Positions 3,585-56,648 of a DNA stretch of 64,000 nucleotides are shown piece by piece. The DNA comes from Candidatus Poribacteria bacterium. Lineage in GTDB: Bacteria; Poribacteria; WGA-4E; WGA-3G. Location: assembly GCA_965197475.1 (NCBI GenBank), contig CBDANF010000002.1, positions 736,001-800,000 on the forward strand, given 5' to 3'. The notes under the pieces are model-generated. The model ran no database searches and was not told where the DNA came from. It saw only the letters and a list, made by a program, of their open reading frames with translations. Position 1 is the stretch's first letter; each line of letters opens with the position of its first letter. The translations under genes and the position numbers were made by a program.

Positions 3585-4745
3585 TTAGCCTCTATACAGA
3601 GTCCGCATCTGTTGAATCACCTTCGGTAATTTGGCAATTACTGCGTCAATTTCTTCTTCGGTGGTGTTTCTTCCGAGTGAAAACCGCACTGTACCTTGTG
3701 CTAATCTGGGTGGTAAACCGAGAGCAGCAAGCACATGCGAAGGTTCCATAGACCCTGAAGTACACGCTGAACCCGTTGATACACAGATTCCCTCCATATC
3801 TAATCGTAAGATAAGGCTTTCACCTTCTACAGACTCAAAAGAAACGTTAAGCGTCCCAGGCGCGCAGTATTCCGGATGTCCATTGTAGTGCAACCGATCG
3901 ACGTGTGCATCAAGTCCTTCTCGGAGTCGGCGAGTTAATTTATCCAGATGTTCAGCATAGGCATCCCGTTCTTGTTTAGCAAGTTCCGATGCAACGCCAA
4001 GTCCGACAATAGCGGGTACGTTTTCGGACCCTGCGCGTCTATTACGTTCATGTGAGCCGCCATGCACGAGGTTTGCCAATCGGGTGCCTCGCCGAATGTA
4101 TAGGACACCAATGCCTTTTGGGGCATATACTTTGTGACCCGAAAGCGATAACAGATTCACGCCGAGTTCCTGCACGTTAATATCCAATTTGCCGATTGAC
4201 TGCACAGCATCGGTATGCACAAGGATTTCATGTTCCTGTGCAACCTGACAGATTTCTTCAAGCGGTTGGATAGTGCCATTTTCGTTATTGACATGCATGA
4301 TGGATATCAAAATTGTTGTCTTACGGATAGCGGAACGGAGTTGTTCAATTTGGATACGTCCGAATCGATCTACCGGTAGATACGTCACCTCAAAACCGCG
4401 TTGCTCCAGATATTGGCAGGTATGCAACACAGCGTGATGTTCTACAGACGAGGTGATGATATGATTCCCTTCACCCCGACTCTTTTGCAGCTCGGTTAGC
4501 CCTTTGATGGCGTGGTTATCAGCTTCCGTTCCACTTCCGGTGAATACGATTTCACTTGGACTTTTTGCACCGATGAGTTCTGCGACCTGTTCACGAGCAG
4601 TATCAATTGCGTTGCGTGCTTCACGTCCATAAGCGTGAATGCTGGACCCGTTACCGAATGCCTCAATCAGGAAAGGCATCATTGCGTCTCGAACTTCCGG
4701 GCGAAGTGGGGTTGTGGAATTGTAATCAAGATAGATTCGTTGCAT
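3585..4745 (-). CDS. iscS: Cysteine desulfurase (IscS/NifS group I)
   Basis: YLDYNSTTP, EHHAV, HTDAVQ, SGHK (PLP Lys), STGSACTS catalytic Cys. Confidence 0.93.
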   Translation of the reverse strand: MQRIYLDYNSTTPLRPEVRDAMMPFLIEAFGNGSSIHAYGREARNAIDTAREQVAELIGAKSPSEIVFTGSGTEADNHAIKGLTELQKSRGEGNHIITSSVEHHAVLHTCQYLEQRGFEVTYLPVDRFGRIQIEQLRSAIRKTTILISIMHVNNENGTIQPLEEICQVAQEHEILVHTDAVQSIGKLDINVQELGVNLLSLSGHKVYAPKGIGVLYIRRGTRLANLVHGGSHERNRRAGSENVPAIVGLGVASELAKQERDAYAEHLDKLTRRLREGLDAHVDRLHYNGHPEYCAPGTLNVSFESVEGESLILRLDMEGICVSTGSACTSGSMEPSHVLAALGLPPRLAQGTVRFSLGRNTTEEEIDAVIAKLPKVIQQMRTLYRG

Positions 4746-4843
4746 GCGATGTATCCGTTAGATTCAAGCTATACGAAGTTAACTTTCTAAAAATTCCATG
4801 CCATCTTACCGCTGTGCTTCTATGGTATTTCTCAGTTGTTACA

Positions 4844-5637
4844 TTAGTCAATATGAAACACCTTTCCGCCGACACCTTTGACGATCACGTTATATTCACC
4901 AGCTGCGAACTCTCCAATAGAAACCTAATTTTGATATTTTGTTAACCCAGGTGTATCGAATCTGATATCTTCATATCTTATTAGTGGACAGTGAACACTA
5001 CCAAGAATTTCACCTGCTATCTGTATGTAGATGGTATTACCTTCTTGCTTCTGATGTGTTTCGAGGAATGGTATACACGCTTCCCAAAAGTATCCTTCAA
5101 CATTAACTGTCACTTGAGCAGGTCTGCTTTCTGAGATCAATATCTCACAGTTTTCAATATCTCATCATCTTCAACACGAAATTTCTCATTGATTCCCCTG
5201 CCAATTACTTCATACTCGCCGTCAGCGAACGATGATAACGCCCCGAGAGAAACTTGTCCTTCAGCTTGAGTTACAGCAGCCCCACAGATAAGACCTCCGC
5301 CAGCCTTAGAAGTGCCTATAGTACCCCAGATAAAGATGATATTTCCATTTCGTTTTTGATGTATTTCGTCAATAAAAATACAAGTGTTACTGTGGGATCC
5401 GGTCATAAATGTAACCATAATTTCAGTCGGTTTGTTATCTGAAATTGAAATATCAACATCGTAAAAAGATATGTCTGCAAAATCCCAATCATCAGGATTA
5501 ATCCTGTCATCAGGTGGTATTTTATCGTCTTTGATAGGCACATCCATAATTCCCAAGCCATCCCTTGAACAACCAACGAAACATACAATGCTTGTGATTA
5601 ACAGGGTAATTATCATAAATAAAAACAACTTTCGCAT
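4844..5637 (-). pseudogene. Two-repeat lipoprotein disrupted by a frameshift (~5150) and an in-frame TAG (4925-4927)
   Basis: Lipobox FVGC; repeat 1 ISISDNKPTEIMVT..HQKRNGNIIFI..GQVSLG..FADGEYEVI; repeat 2 ILISESRPAQVTV..HQKQEGNTIYI..N*VSIGEFAAGEYNVI in another frame, ending TAA at 4844-4846. Confidence 0.7.
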
Positions 5638-5704
5638 AAGTTTTCATCTCCTTCTATTTTCAGATTCCATATAGGTTCTATTATTGTAAAATCCAGAATA
5701 CAGA

Positions 5705-7057
5705 TTACTCGTATGTCCGGTAATTGAGAAAGGTAATCTGATTCGAAGAAATCTTAACATCTCTAACAGATTCACTACGGCTGCTTTGTCCGCTTGAATT
5801 TAAAAAGGATAGTTTAAGTGTATGTGTGCCAGCAGGTAACGGCATCCGCACCATAAAAATCTGATTTGGCAGTGTTTGCCATGAACGGGTGTCCGCGCTC
5901 TCTGTAACCACCCCCGCAAGATTGACAATTGCCCCCAAAACTTTACTTTCCTTGTTGGCTTTACGGAATGTTAAATATTTCAACAGGGCGCGCGCTAATG
6001 TTCGAATGAGAGTTACAGTGTGTTCAGCTTCAAGGGTTTCAATCGCCATTATTTCTATGTCCTCTATTAACACACCCTGGGCTATTTCTTCTCCCACTGA
6101 AACCTGAATGCCTTTGAAATAGGGGCGTTTGGAACGGATTGTTGGCATTGCGACGTGTAAGAGATATTCAAGTTTTATCTCTTCTACAACCAATCCTTCA
6201 CGTGTTCTAATAGTACGAGCAAACGTTATAGTGTCTTTGTCATCATCTTCACCAAATTTATCGGTTTTGAGGATTGGAAACGTCAAAGTTTGCTCTCCCC
6301 TTCTTGGAACATAACCACTTTCATAAAAGAGGATCAACTCGCCATAGTTTTCAGGCAGTGCAGGCGGTTCGCCATACTGATTACGATAACGCTCATAATC
6401 ATCAGAAAAATTTAGTTCGCGTGATAGTCGCACAAGGGAATGACCTACATCATCAGGCACAGACACACCTGTTATCTCAGCAGCATTTTTATAGTATTCT
6501 TCTGCTTGCTTGTAAGAGATTAAGGCATCATTCAGCTCACCTGCTGCCTCAAACACCGTGCCGCAGAAGTGTGCAAGAAACCCTGTTCCAAAAAAATTAT
6601 ACTCCTTCTCTTCACCTTTGAAATACTGAATTAGACTCGTAGCACGGCGGCATTCTACCAATGCATCGTCTAACTTATTCAGATAGATATAGTTCAGGGC
6701 ATGGTAATAGTGACTTAAAAGTCGTTCATACCGAGTGCCAGCATAAGGACGGAGTTGATCAGAGGTAACAAGTGAAAAAGCCTCTTTTGAAACACTTTTG
6801 GTATAACGATCCTCAGCTAAATTTCCCGCTAAGTCAAATGCTTTGCTGCTTTCTGTAAATAGGTTAGAATAATGGGCAGTCAATCCTAATTCATATTGAT
6901 GCGGGATATCCGGCTTTTTCGGTGCGTTTTTCTTAAGGTAGTTGTAGGCATTTTCAGGTTTGCCAGTTTTCATGCCAATTTCGACTTTGTCGAAATTATA
7001 ACCAGCACACCCTATCATCAAAGGAATAATGAGTAGAAACGGAAGTATTTTAGTCAT
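5705..7057 (-). CDS. COG3014-like TPR lipoprotein
   Basis: Lipobox MIGC; PYAG..YE, ALVECRR and ADTRSWQTLP motifs; adjacent to an LpoB-like gene, as is typical. Confidence 0.75.
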   Translation of the reverse strand: MTKILPFLLIIPLMIGCAGYNFDKVEIGMKTGKPENAYNYLKKNAPKKPDIPHQYELGLTAHYSNLFTESSKAFDLAGNLAEDRYTKSVSKEAFSLVTSDQLRPYAGTRYERLLSHYYHALNYIYLNKLDDALVECRRATSLIQYFKGEEKEYNFFGTGFLAHFCGTVFEAAGELNDALISYKQAEEYYKNAAEITGVSVPDDVGHSLVRLSRELNFSDDYERYRNQYGEPPALPENYGELILFYESGYVPRRGEQTLTFPILKTDKFGEDDDKDTITFARTIRTREGLVVEEIKLEYLLHVAMPTIRSKRPYFKGIQVSVGEEIAQGVLIEDIEIMAIETLEAEHTVTLIRTLARALLKYLTFRKANKESKVLGAIVNLAGVVTESADTRSWQTLPNQIFMVRMPLPAGTHTLKLSFLNSSGQSSRSESVRDVKISSNQITFLNYRTYE

Positions 7058-48095: not shown

Positions 48096-48935
48096 GGGTT
48101 CACTCATCCGCTCCTGTGCTTGACGTGACAACTCCGCGAGGTGTCCATCATTCGCCATCACCTGTTCAAGGTGTATCTTCCGTTCCGGTGTGGCAGTGTT
48201 TACCATCTTCTCGCCATATTTCCGATCAATCCAGAACCGTGCCGAACCCCCGATATAAGCACGTAAAGCGTCCAACTTATCATCAGGATATCGCTGACAG
48301 AGATTCATAGTAAACATACGCCGGCGTGTGCTACCGCCAAACGCCGCATGTTTGGTGTTATGGTTAAACAGCACAAGATCGCCAGGTGTTGTTTCAAAGA
48401 CGACAGCGGGTACATCTTTTCCGTGTATTTCCCACATCTCCTGACTTCTTCCAATTTGCTGACTCAGTCCGTCTGCATAGTTGTCACCAAAGAGATGGCT
48501 ACCCGGAATAACGCGAAGCGCGCCAGTGTCCCGTGTGAGCGGATCAAGGTAAAACGCAATCTTAATGTGCATCGGATCTTCTAAGCGATGTCCACCGTCA
48601 GAATGCCATCCGGTATCGCCGACATAGAAATTGCCATCACTTCCCATATAGTTAAAATCGTCTCCGAGCAAGGTTTTGGCAATCGCCAGAATTCGCGGGT
48701 CATCCAGCAGCGATGATAACTCTTCACTCTGATCAATGAAAGGCACAATACAAGAACGCGCTGTTCCTGCGTGCGGTTTGCCATTGTGTCCACCGCCGCG
48801 TTCTGACCAAACAGTTTCAAACGCGTCTTGAATCGCTTCAATCCTATCTGCCATCAGTTGTGGAAAACTAAGATAACCGAATGTCTTGAAAAAACTAATC
48901 TCCGAATCGGTGAGGTTGAAATCGTGTTGGTTCAT
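48084..48935 (-). CDS. Phytanoyl-CoA dioxygenase (PhyH) family Fe/2OG enzyme
   Basis: FKTFGYL, WHSD, GALRVIPGSH, PGDLVLF...HA. Confidence 0.9.
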   Translation of the reverse strand: MNQHDFNLTDSEISFFKTFGYLSFPQLMADRIEAIQDAFETVWSERGGGHNGKPHAGTARSCIVPFIDQSEELSSLLDDPRILAIAKTLLGDDFNYMGSDGNFYVGDTGWHSDGGHRLEDPMHIKIAFYLDPLTRDTGALRVIPGSHLFGDNYADGLSQQIGRSQEMWEIHGKDVPAVVFETTPGDLVLFNHNTKHAAFGGSTRRRMFTMNLCQRYPDDKLDALRAYIGGSARFWIDRKYGEKMVNTATPERKIHLEQVMANDGHLAELSRQAQERMSEPSRG

Positions 48936-49009
48936 TTCACATCCTCCATTGGATACTAAGAATATCGCTATCATAACACAACTATCATTAATTTTACAAC
49001 CCTGAAAAC

Positions 49010-49037
49010 AAATAAGGCATCTGCCTCAGCAGATACC
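49010..49037 (-). terminator. Intrinsic terminator downstream of rsr
   Basis: Minus strand GGUAUCUGC-UGAG-GCAGAUGCC-UUAUUU. Confidence 0.65.
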
Positions 49038-49074
49038 CGATCCAAACCTAAAACTACGACTCACAATTGCAGTG

Positions 49075-50721
49075 CTAAATTGTTTCATCAGAAATCTCAG
49101 CATCTTTTGCGAAGTCACTGAGCAATGCAGGTGTAGCAGTATCAAACCCGACAAAATCCAGCATACCAGCATCTTTCGGATCAGCAATCGAAAAGTTGTT
49201 CGCCACCATCGCAACAACGGCACACTTTGCGGGTCTTCCCATCTCTTGCCGATACATATCCAGTGCTGTTTTCGGGTGGATATCACCATACCATGTTTCG
49301 CTATCTGTGTAGATCGTGAACATGTCTACTTCTAATTTATGTTGCATTGCGTAAAGCATGGGCAGCGCGCAATCGGTACGAGAGAACGGTAAACCAGAAA
49401 CTTTTTCAATAGCACTTGCTAAACTATCGGTTGCCGTAATAGGCACGTGTACAAAATCGCCTGAAAATCCGAAGATATGGTAACTCGGTTCCGTGCGGGC
49501 GGTTACCAGTGCCATTGCAGCAGAAGCATTACGCGGTGTAAGCCCTTCACAACCAGCAACTGTACTTCTTGTCATTGACCCGGAAACATCAAGTGCCAAA
49601 AAAGTGTTCTTTTCACTCGGTTCAACGTTATCAAACGCCATGTAAAACGCAGCGTCTAAAACATCAACAATCTGCGGAACAGGCTCCCAGCTCAAACTGC
49701 CTCTGACTCCAGTGCCTGACCTATATGTTGTTAATGCCATAAGAATCTGGATAGGATGGATCCGCGAATGCTGAATAGCATCTGCCGAGAATCTTTCCAG
49801 TACAGTCTGGACCTCCGGCACAAAAGGTTTTAGCAACCCTACCTGTGTCATCTTACCGAGGTTTCGCACCGTTGCCATCACAGGCATGTTAACTAATAAC
49901 GCTGCCCAGACATCAGGATCATCCTTCCATTCATTTGGTACCATTTCATGCGTAAATTGATATGTTTCAATTAGATTGATGACCTCCGCACGTTTCTGAG
50001 TGTTTTTCAGTTCTTCATATCCAGCAAGCAGTTCAGGCAAAGCGTCCGTTGCATCGTAAGCGGTAGAGACCTTTTCTCCTTCTTCTAAACTGCGTTGCAC
50101 AGTACGCGCTTCAGTATCAAGTCCTTTGATCCAGCGATAGATACCTCGGTTTTCACCGTAGTGGCATTTCGCGAGCACGTCAGCATGCCGCCAACTGTTC
50201 CGAGACTGATATTTCAACACTTGATACGCCAATGCGTCATCATCCTTCGTGCGATACCACTCTCCGATTAACCGCCGTAATGCCCTACCCCATCCTCGCA
50301 TACCGTCCACAAACACCACGAAATTGAACAAGTGCGTTCCGATACGCGCGACATCACAGAACACCTCCTGGACTTTTCGTCTTGTAGCAACATCTCCGTG
50401 GGTAAAAGCGAGTGCTAAAGCGTATAAAGCCGGATCATTTTTCGAGGCACGCCCAGAAACTGAAATCTCACGAATCCGTTCAACAACCTGAACACCATCC
50501 TCGGCAATGCACTGCTTAACGGAATCTACATTTTCCTTTGTCAAATCTTGCTCTTTGGCATAATAGGATCCGCCTTCGGTACCTAAAATCAGAAACCTGT
50601 CAAGGTTTGTCCAGATAGAAACAGGATAAACGTATCCGCCAGCAGAATTCTCAACCTGCTGTTCGTCCAAAGGTTGGCGTTGGTGTGGATGCAATGGGGA
50701 ATATTTACGTAAATAACTCAT
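49075..50721 (-). CDS. rsr: Ro60/Rsr TROVE-vWA RNA-binding protein
   Basis: QVENSAGGY, LDRFLILGTEGGSYY, GWGRALRR, KYQSR, RNLGKMT, ALDVSGSM (MIDAS), TDCALPM, YTDSETW, GMLDFVGFD; ATG 50721 with GGTGA SD. Confidence 0.96.
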   Translation of the reverse strand: MSYLRKYSPLHPHQRQPLDEQQVENSAGGYVYPVSIWTNLDRFLILGTEGGSYYAKEQDLTKENVDSVKQCIAEDGVQVVERIREISVSGRASKNDPALYALALAFTHGDVATRRKVQEVFCDVARIGTHLFNFVVFVDGMRGWGRALRRLIGEWYRTKDDDALAYQVLKYQSRNSWRHADVLAKCHYGENRGIYRWIKGLDTEARTVQRSLEEGEKVSTAYDATDALPELLAGYEELKNTQKRAEVINLIETYQFTHEMVPNEWKDDPDVWAALLVNMPVMATVRNLGKMTQVGLLKPFVPEVQTVLERFSADAIQHSRIHPIQILMALTTYRSGTGVRGSLSWEPVPQIVDVLDAAFYMAFDNVEPSEKNTFLALDVSGSMTRSTVAGCEGLTPRNASAAMALVTARTEPSYHIFGFSGDFVHVPITATDSLASAIEKVSGLPFSRTDCALPMLYAMQHKLEVDMFTIYTDSETWYGDIHPKTALDMYRQEMGRPAKCAVVAMVANNFSIADPKDAGMLDFVGFDTATPALLSDFAKDAEISDETI

Positions 50722-50742
50722 AATGTCACCAATTTTAATGAA

Positions 50743-50805
50743 GTGGCGGGCAAGGGGTGCATTGCGGTCACTGGGATAAAGATAACGCAATACTTCGGCC
50801 CGCAC
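50743..50805 (-). ncRNA. Short Y RNA (Ro-binding stem only), copy 2
   Basis: GCGGGC-C-GAAGUAUUGCGUUAUC...CGCAAUGCACCCCUUGCCCGC: terminal helix with bulged C plus upper helix, directly upstream of rsr. Confidence 0.78.
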
Positions 50806-50812
50806 AAAGATG

Positions 50813-50951
50813 GCTCCGGATAAGGGGCAGAGTCCGTTTTGATATGCTCTACCAACTGAGCTATAGCAAGTTTATGCATCACACAAACCTACCAGCAGGA
50901 CTTGAACCTGCGACCACATCATTATGATAACACACTCAATCGACCCGGAGC
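50813..50951 (-). ncRNA. yrlA: YrlA-class Y RNA (tRNA mimic), copy 2
   Basis: GCUCCGGGU-C-GA...CUUAUCCGGAGC terminal stem enclosing a T arm GCAGGUUCAAGUCCUGC, a closed acceptor-like hairpin, then a D arm UAGCUCAGUUGGUAGAGC (permuted order). Confidence 0.9.
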
Positions 50952-50970
50952 AGTGATGGATTATCTATAA

Positions 50971-51206
50971 TAGGGCTTACGCAATTTTTCGCGTTTTTTC
51001 AAAATTATGACTAAAATGGTGCAATTTCAGCAGAATTCTGAGTTCGTAGCGCGCTTACATGAAGATTAATTTATTATTTCGGTAATTCTAATTATCCCAA
51101 ACCCTGTAGGCGCGCTTTGTAAGCGCGCCTAACTTCTCAGCAGAAATTACCGAATTTATTTTTTAATCTTCATCAAAGCGCGCCTACGGGTTTTGCGTAA
51201 GTCCTG
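50971..51206. repeat. ~121-bp MITE-like element, copy 4, carrying a nested 115-bp element (51059-51173)
   Basis: TAGGGCTTACGCA / TGCGTAAGTCCTG; inner TIR ATGAAGATTAA..TTCGGTAATT splits the REP GCGCGCTTAC|AAAGCGCGCCTAC. Confidence 0.7.
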
Positions 51207-51323
51207 TTAAGAAAAAAATTGCTGCATTTCTCTTGTGGGAGGGCTTTGTCCGCCCGATTTTGTTAAATTCAACCCGTTAAACCGGGGTTGAAAACCCGCT
51301 GAATACCATACGCGCATTCGGAG

Positions 51324-51358
51324 TTAGGTTGGGTTTCGCATGCGAAACCCAACCTATA
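51324..51358. repeat. REP-like palindrome (family also at ~404, 42547, 53455)
   Basis: TAGGTTGGGTTTCGCATGCGAAACCCAACCTA perfect palindrome. Confidence 0.7.
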
Positions 51359-51361
51359 GAA

Positions 51362-52018
51362 CTACTCAGACTTGCGTTCTAAAGCAATTTTCTGATTAGC
51401 TTCGGATAATGTTAACGCATCTCCTTCAAGACTCCACGTGTATTCAGTACCCTCTTTAAACAGAGCACCCGAAACCGTTGGACTAAACCCTTTTTTGGTT
51501 TCTTCTGCCATATCGTTTTGCAATTGCTCTACTGTGTTGCCTTGAATTTGTTGTTCCCAAACCTCTTTTGGTTCAAGTGTTACAACCACATCTACGTTCA
51601 AATCATGATTCGTAATTGTCAAGGTTGAATCATCTGCGGTATACGTCCCTTCTGATGCGATTGTAATCTCCTGCGTCATTGAAGAAACAGGTTCAGTATA
51701 TTTCTCGGTGAGTATGAACCCCAAAGCACCTGTAAACGAACCGTCGGCATTGAAAACCCAACTGTTTGCACCTAGCATGAATTCCGTTTCAAATTCTGGT
51801 GCTGGATCCTGTGGTTTGAAAAGGTCTTCAAACATTGCACCGTTGATAGTTGCAACCTGCCAAGTCGTGTCAACGAAGTCGAACATAACTTCATCAGGAT
51901 CATCTTTATCAGGATCATCTTTATCAGGATCATCCTCTTTATCAGCACCGCAACCGATGAGGGAAACAAAGAACAGTGCTGTAGCAAAAATAAGCATAAG
52001 CTTAAAAATCGGTTTCAT
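51362..52018 (-). CDS. Lipoprotein, lipocalin-like beta fold, with 15-nt DDPDK tandem repeat
   Basis: Lipobox LIGC, DTTWQV, FNADGSF, GTY, WSLEGDALTL; ATG 52018 with AAGGA SD. Confidence 0.75.
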   Translation of the reverse strand: MKPIFKLMLIFATALFFVSLIGCGADKEDDPDKDDPDKDDPDEVMFDFVDTTWQVATINGAMFEDLFKPQDPAPEFETEFMLGANSWVFNADGSFTGALGFILTEKYTEPVSSMTQEITIASEGTYTADDSTLTITNHDLNVDVVVTLEPKEVWEQQIQGNTVEQLQNDMAEETKKGFSPTVSGALFKEGTEYTWSLEGDALTLSEANQKIALERKSE

Positions 52019-52074
52019 AACGAAATCCTTTCCAATAAATTTGGATTTAGAAAAATTGAATGATATTGTATCAT

Positions 52075-53021
52075 GAGGGTATTGGTTAAATAATGATGCG
52101 GTAATTAGTGGGTACCCTCTGAACCACTCTGCATCACATTTCAATTAGAGTAGAGTTAATGATAACACTTATGACAAAAATTGTCAATCAAAATCAAACT
52201 AATAAACTGATTTTGATTGACAGATGTATCTAAAACCTATATCCTTATTGAAAACAAACTCGCTGCTCTATAGAGGACACCATGAAGAATTGCCCAAGAT
52301 GTCAACACACTCACTTCGTCAAAAACGGGTTCGTCAAAACTAAACAACGCTATAAATGCAAAAACTGCGGTTATCAATGGACGCGCACAACACCCCGGGG
52401 GAAACCACAAGCACAGAAAACTCTCGCCGTTCTCTTATATTGCCACGGCATCTCAATGAATGCTATCTCAAAACTTGTCGGATGCCACGTAACAACTGTG
52501 CTTCAATGGATACGCACCTTTGCTAAAAAACAGGCACCGAAACAAACACTCACACCCGGCACCACCGCCTGCTTGGAACTTGATGAGATGTGGCACTATA
52601 TTGGGAACAAGAAAAACAAACTCTGGATATGGAAGGCACTTGACAGAAACACAGGATACCTCATTGACTGGGAATGTGGTGGGCGTGATAAACAAACCCT
52701 TGAAAAACTCACGGCAAGGCTCTCAACCCTCAATGCTAAGATATATTACACAGACAAATGGCAGGTCTATGAGTCGGTCCTACCTGCCGTAAAACATGTT
52801 CAGGATAAAGCGGAGACGCATCGCATTGAACGCAACAATGGTCGGATGCGCCACTGGTTCGGACGCTTCAAGCGCAAGTCCATTATTGTTTCCAAAAGCA
52901 TAGAAATGGTGGATTTGACGATTGCTTTGTTCGCACGATTTCGTGTCAATGGCAACGTGTTTGACATTTTAAAACTCGACGGAATAGAAAACATGAATAT
53001 CATTATTTAACCAATACTCTC
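52075..53021 (+). mobile_element. IS1-family element with single-ORF transposase (52282-53010)
   Basis: CPRC..QRYKCKNC zinc finger, HTH, ELDEMW, YTDKW, IERNN..RH; 23-bp TIR GAG(G/A)GTATTGGTTAAATAATGAT; no TSD. Confidence 0.9.
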
Positions 53022-53082
53022 CTTAATTTTTACAAACAACAATTTAATCTGTTGCGTAAGTCGAGTTTAATTTTCACATAGC

Positions 53083-53160
53083 AGCAGGCAAGGCATGTAT
53101 TACATAGGCGCATATTACTGCGACACTAACGTGAATGGTAAAGTAATACTTCGGCCCGCT
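53083..53160 (-). ncRNA. Short Y RNA, copy 1
   Basis: AGCGGGC-C-GAAGUAUUAC...GUAAUACAUGCCUUGCCUGCU; 5' 16 nt GCGGGCCGAAGUAUU-like match to copy 2, with a compensated upper helix. Confidence 0.75.
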
Positions 53161-53167
53161 AAAGACT

Positions 53168-53289
53168 ACTCTGGATAAGAATTGGAATACAAGCTCTACC
53201 GCTGAGCTACAGCAAGGTTTCGCATTACACCCGACCTGCTGGCAGGAGTCGAACCTGCGACCCGATAACGCATTCACACGATCCAGAGT
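53168..53289 (-). ncRNA. yrlA: YrlA-class Y RNA (tRNA mimic), copy 1
   Basis: ACUCUGGAU-C-G...CUUAUCCAGAGU stem; GUUAUC; T arm GCAGGUUCGACUCCUGC; CAGCAGG/CUUGCUG closed acceptor; D arm UAGCUCAGCGGUAGAGC. Confidence 0.88.
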
Positions 53290-53309
53290 TAAGTTTGTTA
53301 CGACTAAAA

Positions 53310-53337
53310 TGGCTGCTTCTGTCGGAATTGAACCGAC
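53310..53337 (-). other. tRNA 3'-half-like element (T arm + 7 nt + G + CCA)
   Basis: GUCGG-UUCAAUU-CCGAC-AGAAGCA-G-CCA; no pairing 5' acceptor strand between it and the promoter. Confidence 0.55.
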
Positions 53338-53373
53338 TTTAGCAAAGTATGCCCATTTCGCAAATAGTGATAT

Positions 53374-53403
53374 ATTATATCATGTTCATGGACATGCTGT
53401 CAA
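53374..53403 (-). promoter_or_regulatory. Consensus sigma70 promoter driving the Y RNA cluster
   Basis: TTGACA-N18-TATAAT with TGn extension on the minus strand; overlapped by two palindromes. Confidence 0.75.
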
Positions 53404-53461
53404 ATTAATTGAACGCTAATACACTAAATTATGACCACTTCTTATAGTCGTAGTAAACCCA

Positions 53462-53982
53462 ACCTACGTGGTGCCACCGATTTGATCTAATTTTCTCAGA
53501 CAACCAAGCCCATCCTAATTGTATTGGGCACGATTCCAGCCACCAACGTAGACTTTACCACTGTGGACATAGATACATAAACCTCGCGTACCCCCACCTT
53601 CTTGAAATATCACCTGCTTCTGATTTTTACTGATGTCACTACACTTGAGAAATGCTGCCACAGTTCGGTTAGTATACGGCCCCTGTGTTGATATGGGGGG
53701 AATCAGGAATATTTACAGCATCGTTTTGGCCATCAAACTGCAATGCCTTGTCAACGATACCTTTAATGGATTTAGGATTTCCAACAAAATTACCATTTAA
53801 TCCGTTTCTTGAGGTGTCTTTGGCACTTCCATCATCAAAAATCCAGTTTCCAGCAACCGTTGTTTCGTCGCTTTGCGCTTCCACCCGCATAGTGGGTAAA
53901 AAAGTAAATGCCAACAAAATAATGCATAATAATGGTAGTACGGGAACTTGTGAAGTGTATCTTTGCTCAATGCTTGAATCAT
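53462..53982 (-). pseudogene. LamG-like protein pseudogene
   Basis: WIFDDG..ALQFDG..INTG / GPYTNRTVAAF..QEGG.TRGL.IYV..GGWNRAQYN*DG / RWHHV across frameshifts; truncated at a REP. Confidence 0.75.
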
Positions 53983-54194
53983 TACTAATCTCCTTTGGAA
54001 TTTCTACTTCCTGTGTTCCGGAGGCTATTTTCTTGAGACAGATATCCTTAAAGTATTAGGTATTATGCCAAATTATGCCAAATTAGCGAAATTTAATCAA
54101 TTGATTGTTTTCGTTCGGCAAATTAATCTTACTTGACAAAAAAACGGATATCCGTTATACTAACATTATAGGATTTCTCAGTATAGGGGGATTG

Positions 54195-56648
54195 ATGCGA
54201 TATAAAGGCTTAGCGTTAGATCGGTTTCAAAAGGAAGCAATTGAAGCGATTAATCTTGAAAACTCAGTAATTGTTACAGCCCCCACGGGTGCCGGAAAAA
54301 CCGTGATTGCTGAATATGCTGTTGAAAAATGCCTCCAGACAAACAAACGCGTTATCTATACCGCACCGATTAAAGCCCTTAGCAATCAAAAATATAGAGA
54401 TTTTCAATCCGAAAATGGTGATAAAATCGGGATTGTCACTGGCGATGTGGTCTTAAATCCTTATGCACAGGTACTATTGATGACCACCGAGATCTTCCGA
54501 AATACAATCTTTGATGATATAGAAAGACTACAAGATGTTTCTTATGTCGTCTTTGACGAAATCCACTATATCAACGATATTGAACGCGGTACTGTCTGGG
54601 AAGAAAGCATCATCTTTGCACCGCAACATATCAAATTTGTCTGTCTAAGTGCAACAATTCCGAATATTAGCTCATTTGCAGAATGGATGCAAAGTGTCCG
54701 AGAAATTGACCTCAAAATTGTTGAAGAGTTAGAAAGACCTGTGCCGTTAGAACATCACATCTATTTCCCAGGCTTTGGAATAGGTAAATTGGAACATCTT
54801 AATAATCTTCAACAAAAAACAAAGCGGCAAACACGAAATAAGGATAAAACAAAAAGGAAATACAATAAATTATCAGATCAAAAGCGGCAAGAAGATACGA
54901 ATGACGGCACCCCTACTAAACCGAAAGGCATAATAGATACCAAACTAATTCCTTACCTCAACGAAAACAAACGTCTCCCATGTCTCTATTTCTGTTTCAG
55001 TCGAAAAAGATGTGAAAGCAACGCCCATTATCATGCATCTTCAGGACAACACGAATTACTTGACACAGAGAAACAGGAACAGATTTTAGAGAAATTTGAC
55101 GCGCTTTGTATTCAATTTGATATTGTTGAAGAGAAAGTAATTACAGATTTTCGTCAATTAATCGCTTGTGGCATAGCCTATCATCACGCGGGCATGCTCC
55201 CTACACTTAAAGAAGTTGTTGAACGTTTGTTTACTTCAGGATTAATTCAACTCCTATTTACTACTGAGACGTTCGCAGTCGGAATCAACATGCCTGCATG
55301 TACAGTCGTGTTTGATAGCCTTGAAAAATTTGACGGTGTCGGTTTCCGTTATCTTAAGGCACGGGAATATCACCAGATGGCGGGGCGAGCAGGTAGACGC
55401 GGGATTGATACCGTAGGCTATGTGTACGCTCAAGTTGATCCGGAATATGCAATACATGACGATGTTAGCAGAACTATTTCCAACACCATTGAACCGATCA
55501 CCAGCCAGTTCAACCTCTCATATTCCAGTATACTCAATCTATATGAGAAATATGGCGATGACATTTACGATGTCTACACAATGAGTTTGAGCAACCACCA
55601 GAATTATAAGCGTATTGCTGATCTCAACAAACAGATTACCCTTCTTGATGAAAAACGTGAATCTCTACCCCTTCCCATCTGTATCCACGACAATATTGAG
55701 GGTATGAAACAGATTGAGAGTTATTACCGACTTAAGCGGGCAAATGGAAAGGAGCATGAAAGATTACAGTTGGAATTAGCGTCTCTCAAATCTCGGATCT
55801 CACGAGGAAAATCGAAAAATAAGGAACAAAAGAAAAAGTTGACACCGATTTACAATCAGATGAAAAATCTTGATCGGCAACTCTCAAAAAATCTTTGCCA
55901 TGGGTGCCACGAACGAAAGCAATGCACCAATAGATATCAGGCAATTCGTAAACAGGAACAGTATATTCAAAATATAAAGCAAAAACAGACACACATTAAG
56001 AGTTATCAGCAAGATCAGATAACGGCTCGTCTTAGCGTGCTTGAGGCACTTGGGTATATTGAAGGGCAGACACTCCTCCCGCGTGGAAACACTGCCTCAC
56101 ATATCTATGGATACGAACTCCAACTGACTCAACTGCTCTTTAGAGGGTTTTTTGAACGGTTGACTGAGGATGAAATCAACTGTCTCATGGTAGCAATTGT
56201 GTCTGAACCTCGTAAAGACGGCTATTTTAAAAAAGTAAAGGATAAAAGATTACTATCTATTCTGGGCGCGGCTTGGGACGAAATTTTAGACATCCAAAGA
56301 GTAGAAAACCAACTTAATGTATCCGAAATTATACCAATGTTAGAACTTCGTTTGTGCTCCGCGATGCTTGCTTGGAGCCGTGGTTGTGAATTTGATAAGT
56401 TGACTGAATACGCAGCACTTGATCCGGGAGATTTTGTCAGAACCTTCCGGCTTGTGATTGACCAACTTCGTCAAATCCGGCGCACCATGGCAGGACACAC
56501 TGCTCTCACAGATAAACTGAATCGTTGTATCGGTAAAATTAATCGTGATGTTGTTGATGCTGAACGCCAACTGCGAATCGGACAGGAAGAACCGTTTGAA
56601 GAGGAAGAGGACACAGTAAACACTGCTCCACGTGAGTATAGTCCGTAG
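54195..56648 (+). CDS. Ski2/HelY-like DEAD/DEAH RNA helicase with DSHCT domain
   Basis: APTGAGKT, PIKALSNQK, DEIH, LSAT, HHAGMLP, QMAGRAGRRG, GDFVR..DQLRQI. Confidence 0.92.
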   Translation: MRYKGLALDRFQKEAIEAINLENSVIVTAPTGAGKTVIAEYAVEKCLQTNKRVIYTAPIKALSNQKYRDFQSENGDKIGIVTGDVVLNPYAQVLLMTTEIFRNTIFDDIERLQDVSYVVFDEIHYINDIERGTVWEESIIFAPQHIKFVCLSATIPNISSFAEWMQSVREIDLKIVEELERPVPLEHHIYFPGFGIGKLEHLNNLQQKTKRQTRNKDKTKRKYNKLSDQKRQEDTNDGTPTKPKGIIDTKLIPYLNENKRLPCLYFCFSRKRCESNAHYHASSGQHELLDTEKQEQILEKFDALCIQFDIVEEKVITDFRQLIACGIAYHHAGMLPTLKEVVERLFTSGLIQLLFTTETFAVGINMPACTVVFDSLEKFDGVGFRYLKAREYHQMAGRAGRRGIDTVGYVYAQVDPEYAIHDDVSRTISNTIEPITSQFNLSYSSILNLYEKYGDDIYDVYTMSLSNHQNYKRIADLNKQITLLDEKRESLPLPICIHDNIEGMKQIESYYRLKRANGKEHERLQLELASLKSRISRGKSKNKEQKKKLTPIYNQMKNLDRQLSKNLCHGCHERKQCTNRYQAIRKQEQYIQNIKQKQTHIKSYQQDQITARLSVLEALGYIEGQTLLPRGNTASHIYGYELQLTQLLFRGFFERLTEDEINCLMVAIVSEPRKDGYFKKVKDKRLLSILGAAWDEILDIQRVENQLNVSEIIPMLELRLCSAMLAWSRGCEFDKLTEYAALDPGDFVRTFRLVIDQLRQIRRTMAGHTALTDKLNRCIGKINRDVVDAERQLRIGQEEPFEEEEDTVNTAPREYSP

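Follow-up and report, generated by a model that had tools for sequence, protein, structure and literature searches.

A probable Ro60/Rsr ribonucleoprotein locus with four Y RNA genes of two architectural classes in a Poribacteria sponge symbiont

The stretch of DNA analysed here, referred to below as the window, comprises 64,000 nucleotides (nt) of a Candidatus Poribacteria bacterium (GTDB lineage Bacteria; Poribacteria; WGA-4E; WGA-3G; assembly GCA_965197475.1, contig CBDANF010000002.1, positions 736,001–800,000 of the forward strand). A window coordinate equals the contig coordinate minus 736000, and the genome to which the window belongs is 5.7 Mb long and 92.7% complete. The minus strand probably carries a Ro60/Rsr ribonucleoprotein (RNP) locus of this sponge symbiont, in which a single Rsr is accompanied by four Y RNA genes of two architectural classes: YrlA, a tRNA mimic, and a short stem-bulge hairpin (short Y). 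The locus is a Mycobacterium smegmatis-like locus doubled; the doubling is conserved in relatives and has here been split by a mobile insertion. Bacterial Ro60 RNPs have, to our knowledge, been studied in only three cultured species.

An initial annotation made from the letters of the window had placed four Y RNAs, rsr, a promoter and a terminator in this region. Protein domains, Rfam and two clade covariance models (R1 for YrlA and R2 for the short Ys) bear out these placements, and the elements follow each other on the minus strand in the order given here.

53374–53403, minus: sigma-70-type promoter of the Y RNA array (TTGACA-18-TATAAT, 12/12, with TG before the -10 hexamer)
53290–53373, minus: 84-nt leader; T-arm-like hairpin (GUCGG-UUCAAUU-CCGAC), then 7 nt, G and CCA
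53168–53289, minus: YrlA-1, class-I-like tRNA mimic whose variable loop has 5 nt; RF02553, and model R1 at 129.4 bits
53081–53161, minus: short Y-1, 81-nt stem-bulge hairpin; model R2 at 62.8 bits, E 1e-12
50967–53065: insertion of 2,099 bp between the cassettes; breakpoints from comparison with relatives
50813–50951, minus: YrlA-2, tRNA-mimic Y RNA; RF02553 (partial), and model R1 at 111.5 bits
50743–50805, minus: short Y-2, 63-nt stem-bulge hairpin; model R2 at 70.1 bits, E 1.1e-14
49075–50721, minus: rsr (Ro60 orthologue, 548 amino acids); PF05731 TROVE, E 1.1e-32, and PF25045 vWA_Ro60, E 4.6e-61
49015–49038, minus: terminator-like hairpin and T run 3' of rsr, of intrinsic type as predicted from sequence

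The rsr gene is the sole TROVE gene of the genome. Its product matches the structures of Xenopus laevis Ro60 (PDB 1yvp, 407.5 bits) and Deinococcus radiodurans Rsr (PDB 2nvo, 398.9 bits) about equally, the frog protein being the best PDB match by a small margin only. A transfer of rsr from host to symbiont was considered and rejected, as the closest relatives returned from outside Poribacteria are bacterial (40–49% identity) and nothing favours an animal origin. Of the 61 relatives whose genomes were examined, those in the same genus have rsr in 30 of 36 cases and those in other families of the order in 1 of 24. Species genomes queried with the Rsr protein yielded 26 Poribacteria loci with their flanks and three distant bacterial loci (L036–L038, from a Planctomycetota, a Chthonomonadaceae and a Solirubrobacter genome).

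Both YrlA-type RNAs are picked up by RF02553, the Rfam YrlA family, which is the top Rfam family in the window once E-value thresholds are used. YrlA-1 aligns to the full model (53166–53288, minus strand, 41.2 bits, E 8.5e-7) and is the best RF02553 match in the genome; YrlA-2 aligns to model positions 23–87 (50840–50919, minus strand, 28.4 bits, E 0.004) and ranks third, behind a match inside a cluster of overlapping matches. Such clusters of overlapping weaker matches in the genome are read as tandem tRNAs. The initial annotation had expected matches at these two places, and they are indeed found there, but below the gathering score of 69 in both cases and covering only part of the model for YrlA-2. 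RF02553 also cross-reacts, with weak matches at E ≤ 1 in 13 of 14 control genomes, so that the 28-bit match of YrlA-2 is not specific on its own. In terms of location, both RNAs are on the same strand as rsr and within the 4 kb considered in the YrlA paper, YrlA-2 ending 92 nt and YrlA-1 2.4 kb upstream of the gene. Because of the low Rfam scores and the cross-reaction, the locus was compared with those of its relatives.

BLASTN and inspection show that in each of the 26 Poribacteria loci the same RNAs precede rsr. Sequence patterns for the terminal helices gathered 81 YrlA and 82 short-Y occurrences, of which 45 and 48, respectively, are distinct. The YrlA alignment contains 44 sequences, a 198-nt double-module copy from locus L035 being left out, and the short-Y alignment contains 49, window Y-1 having been missed by the collecting pattern and then added. 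R1 and R2 were built from these two alignments, the sequences of which all come from one genus, and were run over 40 genomes of that genus.

The clade YrlAs display a permuted order of tRNA-like modules, with a T-arm, a closed acceptor-like hairpin, the dinucleotide UA and a D-arm following each other inside a long stem. The tRNA core is readily recognised: the T-loop reads UUCRANU, the UA between the acceptor-like stem and the D-stem as well as the GG of the D-loop are present in 44/44 sequences, and GUUAUC follows the second helix in 38/44. The acceptor-like stem of most type-1 YrlAs is 7 bp long (CAGCAGG/CCUGCUG), and that of YrlA-1 in the window carries a bulged U. The variable region measures 5 nt in 20 of the 44 sequences, 7 nt in six and 14–15 nt in 18. 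YrlA-2 belongs to the last group and combines a 14-nt insert at the variable-loop position with a 14-bp acceptor-like hairpin. From their lengths we read these regions as those of putative class-I-like and class-II-like mimics. A hairpin in the variable arm of type-2 YrlA is only a tentative idea; the conserved UAAUGAU allows a stem of 3–5 bp by eye, without convincing covariation.

Compensatory changes are found in every helix of YrlA. In the five helices of the RNAalifold structure 98.0% of 1364 cells form standard pairs and 13 of the 31 pairs change on both sides. The covariation score is reached by none of 500 shuffles, and when the partner is slid by 1–3 columns pairing falls to 32–48% of cells. 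Examples are columns 5/145 of the terminal helix (U-A in 29 sequences, C-G in 15), the second helix (A-U in 29, G-C in 15), the T-stem (G-C in 28, A-U in ten, G-U in six) and all six pairs of the acceptor-like stem. The two-helix hairpin of the short Ys pairs in 98.6% of 735 cells and four of its 15 pairs are compensatory. The initial annotation had argued from compensatory divergence between the two cassettes of the window, which align at 75% mean column identity. The pairings that it quoted (GCUCCGGGU/AUCCGGAGC, ACUCUGGAU/AUCCAGAGU, UGGUAG/UUGCUA and CAGCAG/UUGCUG) are present in the sequence as written, and covariation exceeding both controls is now seen across homologous Poribacteria loci in both RNA classes. 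Single-sequence folds have z-scores of -3.96 for YrlA-2 and -4.14 for Y-2.

A bulged C followed by G, together with CUU before the 3' strand, had been described for the terminal helices of the four window RNAs and recurs in the alignments. In YrlA, C10 and the UU are invariant and G11 is present in 43/44 sequences; the strands of the short-Y helix are GCGGGC-C-G and CCUU-GCCCGC. In place of the GNCGAA motif the YrlAs have a near-invariant helix CUCYGGGUCG ... CUUAUCCRGAG, in which GUCG is kept in 42/44 and followed by variable bases; at the motif site YrlA-1 reads AUCGUGUG and YrlA-2 GUCGAUUG. The degree of conservation of this helix suggests sequence-specific recognition, and the bulged-C helix is the presumed Rsr site of YrlA, which is the weakest step of our model. 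An extension of the helix past the bulged C (columns 11–13 with 138–140) is not supported: G-U is found in 43/44 sequences, but at the two positions that follow pairing is lost in 15 and 13 of 44, and compensation is zero.

Judged by motif, hairpin form and location, the short Ys appear to correspond to the second, hairpin-type Y RNA (YrlB, Yrn2) of other bacteria. The published Ro60-binding motif GNCGAAN0-1G is present in 42 of the 49 sequences, including both window copies, and this motif-bearing hairpin lies beside rsr and YrlA, as fits YrlB/Yrn2. The bulged-C helix is recognised as GCGGGCCGAAG in 36/49 and as CCUUGCCCGC or CCUUGUCCGC in 36/49. In window Y-1 the 5' side has GCCGAAG and the 3' side CCUUGCC. 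The Ro helix is recognisable on both strands (GGNCCGAAG ... CUUGNCC, with the bulged C), as has been reported for D. radiodurans Yrn1/Yrn2 and animal Y RNAs. The loop begins with UUAUC in 16 (Y-2 among them), UUACC in 20 (Y-1 among them) and UUAAC in 12 of the 49 short Ys. UUAUC is described in two papers (PMC4450293, PMC4726728) as the motif conserved at the loop's 5' end in stem-bulge RNAs (sbRNAs) and vertebrate Y RNAs, and the short-Y loops resemble these; such motifs are too short for a claim of homology. Unlike animal Y RNAs and sbRNAs, the short Ys are not recognised by the corresponding families: Y_RNA (RF00019) has no match at E ≤ 10 in window 48800–53700 or in positions 4500–5000 of the related locus L011, and nematode sbRNA (RF01656) matches Y-2 only and marginally (20.5 bits, E 1.1; gathering score 38). 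As RF00019 gives no match, it is only by short motifs that the short Ys look animal-like. Rfam returned no YrlB or Yrn2 family for them.

Conservation of the four RNAs was compared with that of rsr and of the flanking DNA in ten loci with the order YrlA-1, Y-1, YrlA-2, Y-2 (A1-Y1-A2-Y2), namely that of the window and those of nine relatives. Mean pairwise identities are as follows.

YrlA-1: 0.87
Y-1: 0.89
YrlA-2: 0.895
Y-2: 0.79
rsr codon position 1: 0.895
rsr codon position 3: 0.62
Spacer from Y-2 to the rsr start codon: 0.635
60 nt upstream of YrlA-1: 0.33

With identities of 0.79–0.895 against 0.62 at the third codon positions of rsr, all four RNAs are under purifying selection.

The RNAs also co-occur with rsr. 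R1 has 51 strong matches (81–141 bits) in 34 of the 40 genomes of the genus, 49 of these matches being at rsr; its remaining matches, about one or two per genome, score 28–39 bits and are taken to be tRNA background. R2 gives 51 matches in 33 genomes, every one of them at the rsr locus. In the six genomes that lack rsr (G006, G012, G013, G014, G017 and G022) there are zero strong R1 and zero R2 matches, and in the genome of the window the strong matches of the two models are the four RNAs of the locus only. Together with the covariation and the conservation above that of synonymous sites, this upholds the earlier proposal of a duplicated [YrlA + short Y] cassette of which both copies are selected.

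The two strong R1 matches away from rsr are on other contigs in genomes G004 and G023, in each of which rsr lies with an array of short Y, YrlA and short Y. The extra YrlA of G004 (L069:2920–3240; G004:C57:130822–130944) has a promoter-like site on its 5' side and directly 3' of it a gene of the PhyH family, which is also the gene that follows rsr in the window. From this synteny it looks like the equivalent locus from which rsr and a short Y have been deleted. The extra YrlA of G023 lies at G023:C32:147021–147143.

In the relatives the RNAs are contiguous and directly upstream of rsr, with spacers of less than 10 nt between a YrlA and its short Y and of about 25–34 nt between a short Y and the next YrlA. 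In 23 of 26 related loci a promoter matching at least 10/12 positions is found no more than 200 nt upstream of the first RNA, and in L016, L019 and L032 the -10 hexamer ends 7–8 nt before the predicted 5' end of YrlA. The arrays contain one to four RNAs in shuffled orders (A1-Y1-A2-Y2, A2-Y1-A1-Y2 and others) and are distributed over the 26 Poribacteria loci as listed.

A1-Y1-A2-Y2: 9 loci (Y-1 of L033 found by BLAST, missed by the pattern)
A1-Y1-A2-Y2 order with YrlA-1 disrupted: 1 locus (L012)
Four RNAs in other orders or of other types: 4 loci (L014, L015, L020, L028)
Three RNAs: 1 locus (L013)
Two RNAs: 10 loci
One RNA: 1 locus (L024)

Two YrlAs and two short Ys at rsr are found in 15 of the 40 genomes of the genus, that of the window included. 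The initial annotation had left the novelty of the arrangement open; it is not unique to the window, and loci with several Y RNAs or YrlAs have already been published.

Some arrays contain rearranged YrlAs. Hybrid YrlAs in L010, L020 (4790–4913) and L059 (1290–1413) combine a type-1 terminal helix with a type-2 variable insert and a short acceptor-like hairpin, and the order of the YrlA types is swapped in L014, L020 and L028, which suggests recombination between paralogous cassettes. In L012 the 5' end of YrlA-1 (4198–4223) is some 430 nt upstream of its 3' end (about 4650), with MITE-like sequence (miniature inverted-repeat transposable element) inside the split RNA; the other three RNAs of this locus are intact. 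The 198-nt YrlA of L035 (4717–4914; also G026:C70:15858–15943) has one bulged terminal helix around two tandem tRNA-like modules. The junction of these modules (D-arm 1 and T-arm 2, 4791–4846) scores 45.7 bits with the Rfam tRNA family, above the gathering score.

The window differs from its relatives by the insertion. Positions 4527–4757 of L011 correspond to window 53295–53066 and positions 4757–6635 to window 50966–49084, and L016, L018 and L033 show the same break; the 2,099-bp insertion is the reason why the window cassettes are 2.1 kb apart. The IS1 element, lipoprotein gene and repeats that the initial annotation had listed between the cassettes are present, but as a genome-specific insertion and not as part of the array. 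Its components are the following.

52075–53021: IS1-family element, 947 bp, with inverted repeats at 52075–52097 and 52999–53021
52282–53010, plus: IS1-family transposase (PF03400, DDE_Tnp_IS1, E 2.4e-28)
51362–52018, minus: Lipocalin_4 lipoprotein gene, unique in the genome
51325–51356: perfect 16+16 palindrome
50968–51209: MITE-like nested inverted repeats, pieces of which recur elsewhere in the genome

The terminal repeats of the IS1-family element are 23 nt long and 96% complementary, and at least eight further copies, 99–100% identical, are present in the genome. Contigs of four sponge metatranscriptome libraries cover YrlA-2, YrlA-1 with Y-1, the insertion and parts of rsr, which shows presence only; the parts of rsr left uncovered do not count as silence. 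Among these contigs are the form without any interruption (joint 50966 to 53069) and one from which the insertion sequence alone is missing (joint 52074 to 53022, a precise 947-bp empty site). Since the IS copies are 99–100% identical and IS-free and insertion-free forms occur in the same libraries, the insertion looks recent and polymorphic. Three contigs begin at 50814, beside the predicted 3' end of YrlA-2, and are not counted as marking a transcript end.

The ends of the insertion (50968–51209 and 53052–53067) and an internal site share the motif ACTTACGCAA / TTGCGTAAG. The nested palindrome of about 240 nt beside YrlA-2 has deep coverage in the RNA-library contigs, and a similar element lies upstream of the L012 array. 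The IS end contains an outward promoter-like site (52159–52187, minus; TTGACA-17-TATCAT, 11/12, with TG) facing the lipoprotein gene. Transcripts from the Y RNA promoter would cross the transposase gene antisense.

We propose the following model. In the ancestral state, as kept in the relatives, one transcript, begun at a single strong promoter, would contain YrlA, short Y, YrlA, short Y and rsr. Processing of the rsr 5' leader would release the RNAs for binding and stabilisation by Rsr, which, as in the systems already studied, would hold each of them by its bulged helix, leaving the remaining part of the RNA to set the task of the RNP. We infer that four distinct RNPs could be formed. The tRNA-like modules would link Rsr to a partner that recognises tRNA or degrades RNA, such as PNPase. 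In the genome of the window the 2.1-kb mobile insertion has parted the promoter-bearing cassette 1 from cassette 2 and rsr.

Such a layout has a close counterpart in M. smegmatis, where Chen et al. (2014; PMC4201824) place both YrlA and YrlB upstream of rsr and describe their processing from a single precursor. Both loci have a tRNA-mimic YrlA followed by a hairpin-type Y RNA upstream of rsr on the same strand, and neither is under RtcR or beside rtcBA. The 7-bp acceptor-like stem of most type-1 Poribacteria YrlAs is a further point of agreement, from which YrlA-1 of the window departs by its bulged U. The comparison concerns layout and not RNA sequence, and unlike in M. smegmatis the [YrlA + short Y] unit is present twice, as diverged paralogues. 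The core of permuted T-arm, acceptor hairpin, UA and D-arm is shared with the YrlA of the Salmonella Typhimurium rsr-yrlBA-rtcBA operon. The YrlA structure paper (bioRxiv 10.1101/312249) describes a conserved UA after the stem that is equivalent to the anticodon stem; as in Salmonella and RF02553 YrlA, a conserved UA is found in the Poribacteria RNAs, inside GUUAUC, and RF02553 aligns over YrlA-1 at full length. Unlike RF02553 YrlA, the clade RNAs score below gathering, have a degenerate GNCGAA and contain the 14–15-nt variable region in 18/44. By the curated score the locus does not belong to RF02553; by structure and by genomic criteria it fits the family. In contrast to the Salmonella operon, the Poribacteria Y RNAs lie upstream and not downstream of rsr, and RtcB and RtcA are lacking: the initial annotation had noted that rtcB and rtcA are absent from the window, and neither is found in the whole 92.7%-complete genome.

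Chen et al. (2014; PMC4201824) further report that YrlA, Rsr and PNPase co-purify in Salmonella, that four small RNAs lie upstream of rsr in D. radiodurans and that vertebrates have two to four Y RNAs, and that BLASTN found YrlB only within Salmonella enterica. They count 355 putative YrlAs in 254 bacteria and already describe several Y RNAs per rsr; as all copies within 4 kb of rsr were listed, more than one YrlA per locus is not new. 'Poribacteria' is not found in the searchable supplements of that paper, one file excepted, and our literature search found no paper linking Poribacteria with Y RNAs or Ro60.

Other explanations can be weighed against a locus of one Rsr and four Y RNAs. The short hairpins could be cis elements of the rsr 5' leader, that is Rsr-binding autoregulatory sites or processing signals by the ribosome-binding site, instead of stable trans-acting Y RNAs. 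Each of them lies inside the presumed leader, about 20 nt separate the end of short Y-2 from the rsr ATG (12–23 nt for the last short Y in most relatives) and the RNA-library contigs demonstrate no more than presence. We nevertheless find this explanation unlikely: the Y-1 copies lie at least 250 nt from rsr between two YrlAs and are conserved like the YrlAs (0.89), the last short Y is separated from rsr by 88–212 nt in L026, L028, L029 and L030, and in the three studied bacteria the second Y RNA, of the same hairpin type, is stable and bound by Rsr (PMC4201824). A cis role and a role as trans-acting Y RNA are in any case compatible. That the YrlA-like elements are remnants of tandem tRNA genes without a Ro-related role is hardly credible. 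It is true that RF02553 cross-matches tandem tRNAs in this genome as well as the control genomes and that the leader contains a piece resembling a tRNA 3' half, but in the window ARAGORN finds neither a tRNA nor a tmRNA, the T-arm, hairpin and D-arm are enclosed by a conserved bulged helix with compensatory changes, and the strong R1 matches are at rsr in 49 of 51 cases and absent from genomes that lack the gene.

The insertion raises the question of whether only cassette 2 still serves rsr, cassette 1 being a decaying orphan, or whether rsr and cassette 2 have fallen silent. The only strong promoter is indeed left with cassette 1, away from cassette 2 and rsr, and private changes have appeared in YrlA-1 (G to A at alignment column 8) and Y-1 (C to U in the 3' strand). 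Both changes preserve pairing (A-U and G-U), YrlA-1 and Y-1 score within the range of their orthologues on the clade models (129 and 63 bits), the promoter is intact at 12/12 and the insertion is recent, which makes either outcome very improbable. A wider reading would have one Ro60 and four co-transcribed Y RNAs forming functionally different RNPs as in vertebrates: a class-I-like mimic, a YrlA whose variable arm is long and class-II-like, and a pair of short Ys that would be true homologues of animal Y RNAs and sbRNAs, judged by both strands of the bulged-C stem and the UUANC loop. The core design would then be shared or exchanged between animals and bacterial symbionts, and the last short Y, at the rsr ribosome-binding site, could provide feedback of Rsr on its own translation. 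To this combination we attach only a small probability.

The reading that we prefer, a Ro60/Rsr RNP locus with one Rsr and four Y RNA genes, has a number of results to contend with. No Rfam family reaches its gathering threshold in the window, both YrlAs included, and RF02553 does so for YrlA in none of 12 related loci. Neither window YrlA has the strict GNCGAAN0-1G motif, which occurs in only four of the 44 clade YrlAs. Fold z-scores are modest for YrlA-1 (-2.1) and Y-1 (-1.1). The collecting patterns fix most positions of the terminal helices, so that the invariance of these helices is partly a product of row selection, although the free positions still covary; the shuffle controls overstate significance because all rows come from one genus. 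The RNA-library data are assembled contigs that show presence only, with no ends, level or strand, and may represent DNA. Following the insertion there is no good promoter upstream of YrlA-2, the best site for cassette 2 and rsr matching 9/12 positions, and their expression in this genome is therefore in doubt.

Two features next to the array deserve mention. The hairpin and CCA of the leader (window 53309–53337, minus strand) have the geometry of the 3' part of a tRNA, the hairpin is present in the fold, and 53321–53337 gives a weak match to a tmRNA T-arm (11.1 bits, E 0.2). In relatives the leader is only partly conserved and decaying, so that the tRNA-3'-like piece is probably a relic. A copy of the 3' end of a resident tRNA was rejected as its source, the 29-mer having no other match in the genome at up to 3 mismatches. 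Such a relic may be relevant to the proposal, cited in bioRxiv 10.1101/312249, that YrlA arose from dimeric tRNA transcripts. Divergent from the Y RNA array, a Ski2-like RNA helicase (DEAD, Helicase_C and DSHCT domains) is encoded at window 54105–56648 (plus strand). As a conserved partner it was rejected, since a Ski2-like DEAD/DSHCT helicase lies within 5 kb in merely three of the 26 Poribacteria loci (L015, L018 and L028).

The current picture of Ro60 biology is unchanged by this locus. What the uncultured sponge-symbiont genus does supply is a set of about 90 distinct natural variants in two Y RNA classes with clear covariation. As the clade YrlAs mostly lack GNCGAA and yet have a near-invariant bulged helix, this set could help to define what Rsr recognises. 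Another use would be an improved Rfam YrlA model, the present one leaving out the whole clade at its gathering score, and the set offers material for asking why one cell keeps several Y RNAs.

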